Positions 13,572 through 63,986 of a stretch of DNA of 64,000 nt are shown piece after piece. Within the stretch, counting starts at the first letter, position 1. Each line of letters starts with the position of its first letter. The notes beneath the pieces were generated by a model. That model was given only the letters and a program-made list of their open reading frames with translations. It did not search any database and was not told the DNA's origin. Source of the DNA: Gammaproteobacteria bacterium (lineage in GTDB: Bacteria > Pseudomonadota > Gammaproteobacteria > Eutrophobiales > Eutrophobiaceae); the NCBI GenBank assembly GCA_965222155.1, contig CBDCTH010000012.1, positions 2,880,001 through 2,944,000 of the forward strand, given 5' to 3'. A program made the translations under genes and the position numbers.

Positions 13572-13758
13572 CTATGAAATTCGCACTCTCATCGGAATAA
13601 ATAATAAACAGGAATGAATCGCAAAGTGTATACTCCTTGAACAGAGTTATCCAATAGAAAATCCCCACGCCTGCCGGATACACACCTCACTCTCATTGAC
13701 AAGCAGGAAAACAAGAACGTAAAATGCCCACGATTATCGGAAATAATAAAAAACGCAA

Positions 13759-13893
13759 ATGAAACGTACATACCAGCCCAGCAATATCAAGCGAAAACGC
13801 CGTCACGGTTTCCGCGTTCGCATGCGCACCAAAGCCGGGCGGCAGATATTGAAGTCGCGCAGAGCCAAAGGCAGGAAGCGCTTGTCCGCCTAA
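13759..13893 (+). CDS. rpmH: 50S ribosomal protein L34 (absent from the ORF track)
   Basis: Translated by hand: [44 protein letters not shown]; divergent from dnaA. Confidence 0.97.
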
Positions 13894-14153
13894 CCCGCAT
13901 ATCTTACCCGTTGATGCGATGATTGCGCCGGATTTTTTATGCCAGCGGGCGCCTGCGACCGAAAGCGTAGCGGGCACTACGGTTGAGGGACAAATTGTCA
14001 GGACAGACAATTTGCACGGCGACAGCCGCCCGCAGGGTTGCGCCCAGAGCCTGCCCCTGTATGGAGTTGAGCAGGGGGAGGGGCGCAATGAACACTGCCC
14101 ACTGGCGTAAAAAAGACAAGCGAGGGCGCATCAACGGGTGAGATATGCGGGTT
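13892..14153. mobile_element. Palindromic MITE/RPE-like element, copy 1 (262 bp, with ~100-bp nested insert)
   Basis: 27-bp terminal inverted repeats AACCCGCATATCT(T/C)ACCCGTTGATGCG; internal sequence shared with copies at 14516, 41633 and 63735. Confidence 0.85.
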
Positions 14154-14518
14154 CATCCGTGTCACCTGAACGTCGCCGTCTCCAGCGAAAACACAGACTG
14201 AACAGCGCCGCGGATTTCAATAACGTTTTTAAAACATCCTGTCGCTCCCGGGATTCGCAGTTTATTATTCTGGCGCGCAGGAACGGCAGAACATATGCGC
14301 GGCTGGGTCTGGCAATTTCCAAGAAGGCGGTGAAAGCGGCGGTATCCAGAAACAAGGTTAAACGCACCATACGGGAAAGTTTCCGCAACCACGCGGATAT
14401 ATTGTCAGGACTTGACATAGTGGTGTTAGCGCAACGGCAGATAAAGTCACATGAAAGCAGGTTTATGAGCCAGTCTCTCAGAACACATTGGCAACGGATT
14501 ATGCAATGCGAACAGTAG
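14138..14518 (+). CDS. rnpA: Ribonuclease P protein component (native start probably GTG 14159)
   Basis: [33 protein letters not shown]; rpmH-rnpA synteny. Confidence 0.95.
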
Positions 14519-14877
14519 CCCGGATTTCTCACCAAGCGATGCGCCCTCGCTTGTCTTTTTCCCGCCAGCGGGCACGTGCTCCCTCAACCAGAGGCATAAC
14601 TATGCTTTCGGTCGCAGGCGCCCGCTGGCGGGAAAAATCCGGCGCAATCATCGCATCGCTTGGTGAGAAATCCGGGCTAATTACCGGCGCGATCCGCCTT
14701 TACCAACGCTTTGTCAGCCCTTTCCTGGGCGCGAACTGCCGATTTTACCCGTCTTGTTCCAGCTACGCCTGCGAAGCCATAGAAAAACATGGCGTGCTGC
14801 GCGGCGCCTGGCTGGGCGCCAGGCGCCTGTGCCGCTGCCACCCTTTTCATCCGGGCGGCATCGACCCCGTTCCCTAG
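14506..14877 (+). CDS. yidD: Membrane protein insertion efficiency factor YidD carrying a 54-aa in-frame insertion
   Basis: MRTV-[54 aa][14 protein letters not shown]..[25 protein letters not shown]. Confidence 0.9.
14516..14679. mobile_element. Palindromic MITE/RPE-like element, copy 2 (inside yidD)
   Basis: Perfect 28-bp inverted ends TAGCCCGGATTTCTCACCAAGCGATGCG, TA at both ends, net +162 bp. Confidence 0.92.
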
Positions 14878-14908
14878 CCCGTACATGGCGGCAGGCCGAT
14901 AACGATAC

Positions 14909-16552
14909 ATGGATACACAACGATTTATTCTCGTCCTGGCGCTGACGCTGGTATCCATCATGCTGTGGGAAGCCTGGCAGCGGGATTATGGCGCCGCGCC
15001 TGCCGGCGCGGCTGCGCCGGACGCACTCCAGCCCTTTGAAGACCCGGGGATTCCGCAGATAAAGCCGGACGACACGACAGCACGGCCTGTCCCCGGTGCT
15101 GAAGCGTCGCAGGGGACGGACGGCTCTGTGACTACGGTAGAGACGGACGTATTGCGCCTGAAAATCGACCGGGGCGGAACCATCGTGTTCGCCGAGTTGC
15201 CGGGTTACCCGATCTCACTGGATAACCCGGACCAGGCTTTTGTCCTGCTGAATAACTCTACCGGTTTGTACCATGTCATACAAAGCGGTATCGTCGGTGA
15301 AACAGCGCCGACCCACAAGGACGTGTTCTCATCGAGGCGGACATCCTACACTCTTAACGAAGGCGAGGACGTCCTGGAAGTACCGCTCACATGGAAATCG
15401 GCAGACGGCGTGTCGGTAACCAAGGTATTCACTTTCGCGCGCGGTTCTTACCGGATTCACCTCAAACACATCATTGAAAACGGGTCGGACACGGACTGGG
15501 AGGGTCGCCAGTATACCCAGATAAAACGGGATGATCCGTCTAAAGAAGGCAGGAAATTACTGTATACTTATACCGGCGCGGTGCTCTCCAGCCCGGATAA
15601 CCGTTATGAGAAGATCAGCTTCGATGATATGGAAGACGCGGAGGCGGACGAGGCTATCAGCAACGGCTGGGCGGCCATGATTCAGCATTATTTTTTAACG
15701 GCCATTCTCCCCGCCGACAAGCAGGCTGTGTACCGTTACTACACCCGCGCGTTTTCTTCCCAGTATTACTCAATCGGCAACGTCTCTCCGGCCCTGCGGC
15801 TTGCCCCGGGACAACAGGGTGAACTGGCCGACTATCTTTACGTCGGGCCCAAACAGCAATCCGAACTGGAACAACTGGCGGACGGCCTGGAACTGACTGT
15901 TGATTACGGCATCCTCTGGTTTCTGGCCAAACCGCTGTTCTGGTGCCTGGAGCGGCTGCACGGGTTGACGGGCAACTGGGGCTGGTCAATCATCCTGGTG
16001 ACGGTCCTGTTGAAGGTCCTGTTTTACCGCCTGTCCGCCGCCGGTTATCGATCCATGGCGAATATGCGCCGGGTACAACCTCGCATGGTGGCAATCCGCG
16101 CGCGCCACAAGGACGATCGCGCCCGTTTGAACCAGGCAATGATGCAGATTTACAAGGAGGAGAAAATCAACCCGTTCGGCGGCTGTTTCCCGATACTGGT
16201 TCAGATCCCCGTGTTTCTCGCCCTGTACTGGGTATTGCTGGAAAGCGTCGAATTGAGACAGGCGGATTTTATCTTCTGGTTGAATGACCTGTCCAGCAAG
16301 GACCCTTTTTACGTTCTACCGATCATCATGGGCGCGACCATGTTGATCCAGCAAAGGCTGAATCCCGCGCCGATGGATCCCATGCAGGAGAAAGTGATGA
16401 AAGCCCTGCCTTTCGTGTTCACGGTATTCTTCGCTTTTTTTCCTTCCGGACTGGTGCTGTACTGGGTCACCAACAACGTCTTATCCATTGCCCAGCAATG
16501 GCGTATCACGAAAAACCTGGAAAAAGAGGGCCTCTCTACTGCCAACAAGTGA
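14909..16552 (+). CDS. yidC: Membrane protein insertase YidC
   Basis: GWAAMIQHYF, LELTVDYG, NWGWSII, INPFGGCFP, GLVLYW. Confidence 0.98.
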   Translation: MDTQRFILVLALTLVSIMLWEAWQRDYGAAPAGAAAPDALQPFEDPGIPQIKPDDTTARPVPGAEASQGTDGSVTTVETDVLRLKIDRGGTIVFAELPGYPISLDNPDQAFVLLNNSTGLYHVIQSGIVGETAPTHKDVFSSRRTSYTLNEGEDVLEVPLTWKSADGVSVTKVFTFARGSYRIHLKHIIENGSDTDWEGRQYTQIKRDDPSKEGRKLLYTYTGAVLSSPDNRYEKISFDDMEDAEADEAISNGWAAMIQHYFLTAILPADKQAVYRYYTRAFSSQYYSIGNVSPALRLAPGQQGELADYLYVGPKQQSELEQLADGLELTVDYGILWFLAKPLFWCLERLHGLTGNWGWSIILVTVLLKVLFYRLSAAGYRSMANMRRVQPRMVAIRARHKDDRARLNQAMMQIYKEEKINPFGGCFPILVQIPVFLALYWVLLESVELRQADFIFWLNDLSSKDPFYVLPIIMGATMLIQQRLNPAPMDPMQEKVMKALPFVFTVFFAFFPSGLVLYWVTNNVLSIAQQWRITKNLEKEGLSTANK

Positions 16553-41632: not shown

Positions 41633-41794
41633 AACCCTGATATTGCACCAGTGGATGCGAAGATCGCGCAGGGTTTTTGGCGCTGGCGGGTGCCTGCGAC
41701 CGAAAGCATAGCCGTAGCTATGATTGAGGGAGCACGTGCCTGCCAGCGCCAAAAAGACAAACGAGGGCGTATCCACTGGTGCAATATCAGGGTT
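41633..41794. mobile_element. Palindromic MITE/RPE-like element, copy 3 (162 bp, between lptB and rpoN)
   Basis: Inverted ends AACCCTGATATTGCACCAGTGGAT; core CCTGCGACCGAAAGCATAG..TGAGGGAGCACGTGCC shared with copy 2. Confidence 0.88.
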
Positions 41795-63734: not shown

Positions 63735-63986
63735 TAGCCCGGATTTCTCACCAGGTCGCTGGTTGTTATCGGAAACGTCAATGTGCTGTCAGTAAGTTAT
63801 GGTAATATTCTCAATATCCCGTCATTACAGACTGCGCTTGATGCGCCCTCGCTTGTCTTTTTGCCGCCCGCAGGGCGCCCGTAGGGTGTGCGCCAGAGCC
63901 TGCCCCTGTATGGAGTTGAGCAGGGGGAAGGCGCACATCTAAAATCCGGCGCGATCATCGCATCAACTGGTGAGAAATCCGGGCTA
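63735..63986. mobile_element. Palindromic MITE/RPE-like element, copy 4 (composite)
   Basis: Ends TAGCCCGGATTTCTCACCA are identical to copy 2; carries the nested module also found in copy 1; left repeat is split by 83 bp. Confidence 0.85.

Follow-up and report, generated by a model that had tools for sequence, protein, structure and literature searches.

The window analysed here, a stretch of 64,000 nucleotides of a gammaproteobacterial genome (G000), carries dnaA on the minus strand followed, on the plus strand, by rpmH, rnpA, yidD, yidC and mnmE, and in the overlap of rnpA and yidD lies a palindromic element that lengthens yidD by 162 bp, or 54 codons. This palindrome is a transposable element of the miniature inverted-repeat type (MITE): it is small and without a transposase gene, it has terminal inverted repeats (TIRs) and a target duplication, and it occurs in many copies alongside an autonomous partner. 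Coordinates are window positions unless a locus label is given; L-numbers denote loci and P-numbers proteins.

Filled and empty sites in the rnpA-yidD overlap

yidD is contained in an uninterrupted open reading frame (ORF) of 129 amino acids (14488..14877). From the ATG at 14506-14508, which relatives fix as the ancestral start (AMR...) and from which the 123-amino-acid homologue P0002 has also been called, the frame reads ATG CGA ACA GTA GCC CGG...GGG CTA ATT ACC and stays open until the stop at 14875-14877. The sole Pfam domain of the ORF is that of YidD (PF01809), with a match of 106.5 bits against a cut-off of 27 that is confined to the last 64 residues, after the insert; this core keeps all 19 columns that are invariant in an alignment of 55 sequences and carries the conserved Cys/His-Pro/Gly-Gly-x-Asp-x-Val-Pro residues. 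The rnpA gene terminates in CAG TAG, the stop occupying 14516-14518. Its open stretch has a first start codon at 14138, inside a second copy of the element (copy B), and the GTG given in Table 1 is the likely start. A preliminary description of this site had held that both overlapping genes survive the insertion, and both ORFs are indeed intact. It had also credited the insert with supplying the rnpA stop; a TAG does stand at the old stop position, but its T and A come from the duplicated target, and the third base (G) alone is new.

The insert has perfect inverted arms of 28 nt (14516-14543 and 14652-14679) and is predicted to fold as RNA at -114.1 kcal/mol (z = -13.3), a value that none of 200 shuffled sequences reached. 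The only open frame of the 158-160-bp element encodes a 54-amino-acid peptide without a Pfam match. We considered and rejected a self-splicing intron or an intein, because a search of 13600-15100 against Rfam (E <= 1) gave no match and the ORF has no Pfam domain besides YidD. A promoter scan of 13700-15000 returned no sites, and the same interval holds two terminator-like sites, against 2.1 expected.

Of 11 related loci recovered with the RnpA protein, all except L036 were examined at the insertion site. One of them (L031, in genome G019, with an RnpA 96% identical) carries the same element at the same position, 91% identical, without an indel and with the frame open, and nine (L032-L035 and L037-L041) are empty, with a single TA where the filled sites have TA on both sides. 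At the empty sites rnpA ends in CAG TAA, CAA TAA or CAG TAG and yidD begins ATG CGx xxA xTA, the one TA serving both as the beginning of the rnpA stop (TAA or TAG) and as bases 2-3 of yidD codon 4. Removing 162 bp from the filled site restores ATG CGA ACA GTA ATT ACC..., and the 69-amino-acid YidD of a relative in the protein database (P0137) begins MRTVITGTIRAYQ, almost exactly the reconstructed N-terminus. The comparison of YidD orthologues that the preliminary description had suggested, together with the nine empty sites, thus bears out its expectation that excision would give back a normal YidD start and an rnpA ending in TAA.

A junction-spanning query of 421 nt found an end-to-end match in G019 only, among 22 other genomes of the genus. 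Contigs of a DNA sequencing run match both junctions without difference (14105-14567 and 14631-15000); they are not independent support, because the run may be the source sample. With its membership of a multi-copy family, the DNA contigs, the filled site in L031 (an independent genome) and the empty sites, the yidD insertion is neither a chance palindrome nor an assembly artefact, and the observation at yidD/rnpA is confirmed.

The element family, its partner and its open frame

By blastn, the 4.55-Mb genome has 126 places that match the element. When its ends were searched for in pairs, 100 pairs of at most 520 bp emerged, 96 of which have at least 15 of 27 end positions complementary, and the ends are conserved across copies. 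The short form found in yidD, 160 bp including the terminal purine/pyrimidine (R/Y) bases, is present in six copies; the commonest form, with 18 copies, is 241 bp long, with a module of about 81 bp added behind the left end. Further size classes lie at 242-243, 313-315 and 336-339 bp, with others at 248, 260 and 264 bp and a range extending to about 500 bp. From a unit length divisible by three, it had been predicted that more in-frame insertions would be found in the genome; such copies do exist, in a gene for an MFS transporter, in nadE and in relatives, but divisibility is no rule of the family, given classes of 242, 243, 248, 260, 264 and 336-339 bp. With the duplication counted, the three best-populated classes measure 162, 243 and 315 bp, all multiples of three, which may be chance. 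Two different 24-codon modules occur within in-frame copies, in nadE of this genome and in the ABC permease P0005. Within the genus, 20 of the 22 other genomes contain the element; outside it, searches of two further genera of the host family, 17 further families of the class and a plasmid collection gave no match. A literature search of limited extent found no description of this MITE family or of IS1380-derived MITEs.

A partner was sought in G000 as the same ends spaced 1.6-2.3 kb apart, which yielded two elements of 1770 bp (C4:218570-220339 and C12:1242096-1243865) that are 99.5% alike. These insertion sequences (IS; 1763-1768 bp, or 1770 bp for the two in G000) carry the terminal 15-17 bases of the MITE around an interior unrelated to it, and their ORF is an IS1380-family transposase (NF033539, E = 1.4e-93, 313.8 bits against a cut-off of 180; PF13701, E = 3.5e-120, 401.6 bits). 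Transposase-encoding IS with the ends of the MITE are also found in relatives (L103-L105), and sister genomes hold intact transposase frames of 483-496 amino acids (10 entries in G004 and five, of 483 amino acids, in G002). The shared ends and the transposase profile indicate that the MITE is derived from the IS1380 family, and we propose that this transposase mobilised it. In both IS copies of G000 the reading frame is broken near codon 400 by the same in-frame TAG (CTG TAG CTG), and the MITEs of this genome may currently be immobile. An IS630-type partner, suggested by the TA target, was rejected, the four PF13358 elements in G000 ending in CTAGTAC..., unrelated to the MITE ends. In one case (C9:18866-20365; L082), an IS630-type element with such ends has inserted right at the TA that bounds a 241-bp MITE copy, which makes the flank of the MITE itself a target for another TA-seeking element.

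Target duplications of the IS1380 family measure 4-5 bp (ISfinder). The IS copies of relatives are flanked by CTAG/CTAG, CTAT/CTAT and TTAA/TTAA. Among the 96 MITE copies, TA is found on both sides in 60, and 33 of those 60 have identical flanking 4-mers; where the inner flank bases are non-complementary, the 4-mers are identical in 10 of 13 copies (TTAG/TTAG seven times, CTAA/CTAA twice and ATAG/ATAG once). The favoured targets are NTAN, mostly YTAR (TTAA, CTAG, TTAG, CTAA). The preliminary description had counted an element plus one TA; the added length of 162 bp stands either way, but for the family a 4-bp NTAN duplication around a 158-bp element with CCCG...CGGG ends is more likely. The duplication was also sought at orthologous empty sites for 11 copies in relatives, of which two are the yidD site itself, one shows an ambiguous 16-nt gap and one a 116-nt gap; for the remaining seven of the 11 the flanks were not found in G000.

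The phase and orientation used in yidD (xTA/RCC CGG ATT TCT CAC..., the slash marking the left boundary) are free of stops in all six short-form copies, and each of the other five frames is open in none to two of the six; in the 241-bp form, the core of the used frame is open in 14 of 18 copies by our own reading of the translations. Because the left boundary of the element always reads T-A-purine, termination stays in place for any gene whose stop codon opened with the target TA. Open frames of 100 codons or more that end in the boundary TAR adjoin 22 of the 96 copies in G000; a random-TA null for such abutment (22.7%) counts TAs within genes and is invalid as a control, and without a valid null no enrichment is claimed.

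Frames that are open through the element and far on both sides were then screened, and of the 96 copies the 16 candidates with long flanking frames were examined. Among these, three copies in G000 lie in mid-gene, all in the same phase and orientation: (i) that in yidD; (ii) one in the MFS transporter gene (L079:1556-3004), where a 54-codon insert falls in a hydrophilic stretch between the two six-helix halves; and (iii) one in nadE (L028:403-2262), encoding a glutamine-dependent NAD synthase that is the only full-length hit for this enzyme in the genome, where a 78-codon insert lies between PF02540 profile positions 92 and 93. Nine other candidates either occupy short gaps separating genes of the same direction or change no more than the final residues of a gene; they include copies in the rplO-secY spacer, at the end of a nuoN-like gene and upstream of a UMP-kinase-like gene. 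At C1:54017-54209 and C12:1970497-1970811, upstream genes run a few codons into the element and then stop, and so bear element-encoded C-terminal tails, as in a 464-codon frame ending ...ARISHQVMR.

The 54-amino-acid peptide was searched against longer proteins, as had been proposed, and was found inside several from other assemblies: an ABC permease (P0001, with a longer variant in P0005), a DUF4381 protein (P0003), a 579-amino-acid protein (P0004), the orthologous MFS transporter (P0009, 20 members) and the 123-amino-acid YidD P0002. The suggestion of a coding-compatible repeat resembling Rickettsia palindromic elements (RPEs) therefore holds in so far as the same frame runs through the MFS gene, nadE and proteins of relatives; the likeness is one of behaviour only, and the element is taken to be an IS1380-derived MITE. 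Public gene calls (P0006, P0007, P0008 and P0010) also include ORFs that are largely or wholly element sequence, as well as a BON-domain protein with an N-terminal extension read through a long element, and these are probably annotation artefacts of the open frame.

Within core operons, some copies are wedged into very short gaps: one separates rplO from secY (C12:2347897-2348145), one stands between rpsF and rplI (C12:1575984-1576143, beside an ORF for a membrane protein), and another lies on the stop codon of the nuoN-like gene (C12:1913792-1914032); all three must be co-transcribed with essential genes. Two pairs of copies are alike in element sequence, C7:29700-29963 with C10:53389-53652, where both flanks are alike too, and C9:20365-20605 with C12:2169012-2169252. 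Such sharing suggests that some small contigs may duplicate parts of others, which agrees with an assembly contamination of 7.28%.

The window contains three further copies (Table 1). An open frame of 795 codons on the minus strand ends in a TAG formed at the right boundary of the 248-bp copy. Copy B fills the spacer between rpmH and rnpA in the orientation opposite to that of the yidD copy, and the rpmH stop TAA (13891-13893) sits in the 4-mer CTAA that flanks it on the left; its right flank is degraded (TTCA). In relatives the GTG of rnpA follows the rpmH stop by a few bases, and copy B parts this once-tight junction by a hairpin of about 260 bp. Locus comparison shows copy B to be absent from L031, the closest relative, where instead the 5' region of rnpA is duplicated in tandem over about 68 nt (L031:2494-2640). 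The junction there reads CGGGTTTC, similar to the right end of the element in the window, GCGGGTTC, and may be the remnant of an imprecise loss.

Table 1. Features of the rnpA-yidD region and further element copies, in window coordinates
Feature	Position	Strand	Remarks
rpmH (ribosomal protein L34)	13759..13893	+	ORF; Pfam PF00468, E = 7.6e-24
MITE copy B	13894..14151	-	260 bp including terminal R/Y bases; inverted-repeat pairs; TIR pair C12:2893893-2894152
rnpA (RNase P protein)	14159..14518	+	Pfam PF00825, E = 5.6e-27; alignment of relatives; likely start GTG 14159
yidD frame from ancestral ATG	14506..14877	+	123 codons + stop = 4 ancestral + 54 inserted + 65-codon core
Left target copy GTAG	14515..14518		Duplicated dinucleotide TA at 14516-14517; TAG forms the rnpA stop and GTA forms yidD codon 4
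MITE proper	14519..14676	+	158 bp, CCCGG to CCGGG; 160 bp with terminal G...C pair; long imperfect hairpin
In-frame ATG within element (...QAMRPRLSF...)	14539..14541	+	Present in most family members; possible alternative start
In-frame ATG, apical part of hairpin	14602..14604	+	7 nt downstream of AGAGG (14590-14594); possible alternative start
Right target copy CTAA	14677..14680		TA 14678-14679 is the second dinucleotide copy; CTA is the last inserted codon (Leu)
YidD conserved core (...GGIDPVP)	14680..14874	+	PF01809 match (E = 5.9e-31) at residues 65-128 in the ORF from 14488; alignments
yidC, next operon gene downstream of the insertion	14909..16552	+	Named by position and resemblance to loci of relatives, without a family search
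160-bp short-form copy	41634..41793	-	C12:2921634-2921793; apparently intergenic
248-bp copy	63737..63984		C12:2943737-2943984

Proposed translation through the insert

We read these observations as a translated, tolerated, basic and probably disordered passenger peptide in YidD, brought there by an IS1380-mobilised MITE, and put the probability of this reading at about 0.7. According to this model, a transposase of the IS1380 family recognising the shared ends CCCGSATWTCTCACC would have mobilised the non-autonomous MITE and inserted it at NTAN, in the common ancestor of G000 and G019, at the TA shared by the rnpA stop and yidD codon 4. rnpA would be unchanged because TA plus the boundary purine again reads TAA or TAG, and yidD would have stayed open because the element came to lie in the one stop-free orientation and phase. 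We infer that the element is retained in the mRNA and translated: ribosomes would initiate at the ATG at 14506, with probable coupling to the translation of rnpA, and would then unwind the hairpin and continue through it. The product would be a YidD of 123 residues, with a strongly basic (pI 12) and probably disordered peptide of 54 residues ahead of its usual N-terminal helix, and in-frame deletions would trim this peptide over time.

The main argument for read-through comes from natural alleles, collected by protein searches that return only intact ORFs of similar length. YidD occurs with (i) 123 residues and the full insert (this window, L031 and P0002), (ii) 97 residues and a 28-codon variant (P0132), (iii) 76 residues and a 7-codon footprint, ARISHRL, without an internal ATG (P0134, 31 member sequences), and (iv) 69 residues at an empty site (P0137). 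NadE likewise varies among homologues with an overall identity of 94-96%, measuring 619 residues with 78 inserted codons (G000), 595 with 54 codons (P0012, 15 members), 553 with a 12-codon footprint (P0013) and 541 at an empty site (P0014, P0023, P0028, P0060 and many more). All of these length variants are in phase with the original start, no ATG is left in the footprint of P0134, and in P0002 the apical ATG (14602 here) is gone, with PATHSVAG read in its place; together these points argue for initiation at the ancestral ATG followed by read-through.

The same alleles bear on the alternative that YidD is made from a start supplied by the element, at the ATG at 14539 or 14602, with a leader of 47 or 26 residues and the first part of the element either untranslated or within a short upstream peptide. 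Several features would suit such a start: the ATG at 14602 follows an AGAGG by 7 nt in the weakly paired apex of the hairpin, a gene caller chose the matching ATG in a relative (P0131, 91 amino acids), the ATG at 14539 is conserved in most family copies, and no canonical in-frame start lies between the element and the conserved Cys motif. Gene calls for yidD are themselves in disagreement, giving 123, 129 or 91 amino acids, and ORFs consisting of the element only have been called as proteins. However, P0002 is open from the ancestral ATG throughout although it lacks the 14602 ATG, P0134 would have no internal start to use, the phase kept with the ancestral ATG speaks against internal initiation, and internal starts cannot rescue the mid-gene copies in nadE and the MFS gene. 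We regard an element-supplied start as unlikely.

The peptide itself contains 11 Lys and Arg against 2 Asp and Glu residues and has an isoelectric point (pI) of 12.0. Between this window and L031, the ratio of nonsynonymous to synonymous changes (pN/pS) is 0.80 over the 54 inserted codons (14 nucleotide differences), 0.55 in the YidD core (8 differences) and 0.30 in rnpA (9 differences); relative to P0002, about 9 of the 54 inserted residues are changed, and 1 of the 65 in the core. NadE was modelled with AlphaFold from an alignment of 65 sequences (predicted template modelling score 0.75); in the model the insert, at about 364-446, has predicted local distance difference test (pLDDT) values of 22-46 and almost no secondary structure, and lies between confident helices at 347-361 and 443-467. 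In the corresponding model of YidD, the first 23 residues have a pLDDT below 50 and a low-confidence helix spans 34-70. The substitution ratios, the comparison with P0002 and the NadE model together suggest that the inserted peptide is a tolerated passenger devoid of function.

A dead or untranslatable yidD, whose frame would be open merely through the inherent lack of stops in the family and the short time elapsed, is harder to reconcile with the presence of the insertion in at least two species-level genomes and in the lineage of P0002 without a frameshift, with the retention in the core of every family-invariant residue, with the contrast between a nearly unchanged core and a changed insert relative to P0002, and with deletion derivatives of 28 and 7 codons that are in frame. 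What would fit inactivation is that intergenic copies have the open frame too, that the core ratio of 0.55 is based on so few differences, that the hairpin is very stable and that yidD is reportedly dispensable in E. coli. On balance, we consider loss of yidD function rather improbable.

Base pairing within the family was evaluated on 27 copies from G000 (alignment A1), with 500 shuffles and slid controls. In 97.7% of cells the paired positions are complementary, and 15 of 37 pairs show changes on both sides; such two-sided changes amount to 50 cells, against 7.8 +/- 2.4 in shuffles (none of 500 reaches the observed value) and at most 10 in the slid controls. A 12-bp inner stem (A1 columns 22-33 with 87-98) is hypervariable yet almost always Watson-Crick, one pair being GC in 18 copies, UA in 5 and CG in 3, and has very few G-U intermediates, a pattern unusual for a decaying repeat. 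Since one-sided changes to G-U are few, a constraint at the level of DNA or of copying fits better than selection on RNA, and it might lie, for example, in the recognition or synthesis of the hairpin during transposition.

A further alternative is that the hairpin acts as RNA, as an RNase III cutting site or an attenuator that separates the expression of rpmH-rnpA from that of yidD-yidC; the open frame would then have no bearing. In keeping with this are some 75 paired positions (among them the perfect 28-bp terminal stem), the pairing kept across copies by double changes and the second copy between rpmH and rnpA, and PMC5896051 discusses RNase III as a processor of MITE hairpins in elements from Neisseria and Coxiella. 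Cleavage would, however, destroy the nadE and MFS mRNAs that carry the same hairpin in mid-gene, the covarying pairs pass through few G-U intermediates, the full hairpin has no terminator-like T-run after it, and the Rfam search brought no family match. We therefore hold a role at the RNA level to be very unlikely.

Four sequencing runs were compared with the site, all in the form of Logan contigs, and such contigs are interrupted by the repeat. Those from metatranscriptomes extend over rnpA as far as 14521-14540 and also include the 3' part of yidD and yidC of a relative; they stem from a relative, because they have an rpmH end of the L031 type.

Several points weigh against the reading of a translated passenger peptide. 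No metatranscriptome contig bridges the element, and the best (X16, 14392-14540) enters it by 23 nt. A hairpin of -114 kcal/mol lies 10 nt after the start codon, where it could keep ribosomes from initiating or elongating, or could serve as a substrate of RNase III. Most copies, even intergenic ones, have the frame open, so that an open frame in yidD alone is weak evidence, and the searches for intact ORFs behind the allelic series would miss frameshifted alleles. The YidD core ratio is based on merely 8 differences, and the YidD model is of low confidence (mean pLDDT 57.8) and too weak to interpret. As to the mode of insertion, the yidD flanks GTAG/CTAA, set against the inferred GTAA target, fit a 2-bp TA duplication with a terminal G...C pair better.

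Beyond the single site, one may ask whether the family, as an RPE-like MITE of IS1380/piggyBac type, owes its harmlessness within coding DNA to shaping and not just to filtering. The features that can be cited for this are (i) an NTAR target that rebuilds stop codons, (ii) one stop-free frame encoding a basic, disordered linker, (iii) main classes of whole-codon length (162, 243 and 315 bp), and (iv) the compensatory changes in the hairpin. We offer this only as a tentative idea, with the odds rather against it. If true, insertions into essential genes would be translated and then whittled down in frame, and the family would be a continuing source of loops and N-terminal extensions in these symbionts.

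Relation to known mobile elements

TA-duplicating MITEs of IS630/Tc1-mariner type (Correia, ERIC, Nezha) have a central target TA, long co-transcribed hairpins and occasional intragenic copies that carry an ORF. The MITE described here shares the central target TA, the long hairpins and the occasional intragenic copies with them, but the flanks of most copies repeat 4 bases, not 2. A likeness to piggyBac, a eukaryotic relative of the IS1380 insertion sequences, appears in ends that begin with CCC and finish with GGG and in 4-mer targets around TA, which resemble the TTAA target and CCC... ends given in the relevant part of PMC10813416, where IS1380 transposases serve as the prokaryotic outgroup of piggyBac. 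In contrast to both the IS1380 insertion sequences and piggyBac, the yidD element has no transposase.

RPEs (Ogata et al. 2000, 2002), as far as the summary in PMC10969869 goes, are like this MITE in being palindromic repeats of about 150 bp with many copies per genome, inserted in-frame in unrelated housekeeping genes, where they encode in one frame a conserved peptide that is thought to be tolerated in the folded protein. The present family differs in its gammaproteobacterial lineage, its clear TIRs, its target duplication and its identifiable IS1380 partner, and most of its copies are intergenic, with three in mid-gene among 96. We liken it to RPEs by behaviour and not by sequence comparison: it would work like an RPE, without being filed as a member of that group. 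Rickettsia is the best-known setting of palindromic repeats that lie in-frame within genes; we know of no transposase partner for the Rickettsia repeats, and to our knowledge the tolerance of proteins towards them is still open. The Coxiella burnetii elements QMITE1 and QMITE2 are likewise gammaproteobacterial and overlap gene ends; in the portion of PMC5896051 that concerns them, they supply stop codons ('STOP' overlaps in Table 2 of that paper), add C-terminal residues and occasionally lie in-frame within ORFs. The MITE in yidD differs from these in sequence and partner, sits near the 5' end of a conserved gene where it overlaps two genes, and has an empty, full and trimmed allelic series across relatives.

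This lineage brings together an IS partner of which sister genomes hold intact copies, alleles in the empty, full and trimmed state, and well-understood proteins (YidD, NadE, an MFS transporter and an ABC permease), which makes it possible to test whether ribosomes pass a hairpin of -114 kcal/mol, what a basic insert of 54 residues does to a membrane-associated factor, and how such inserts decay. In-frame MITE insertions and stop-supplying MITEs are documented, in the pertinent passages of PMC10969869 and PMC5896051, for RPEs, intragenic ERIC and the Coxiella QMITEs. The phenomenon thus has precedent, and what the present family adds to these systems is a traceable partner IS and a natural allelic series in well-known genes.

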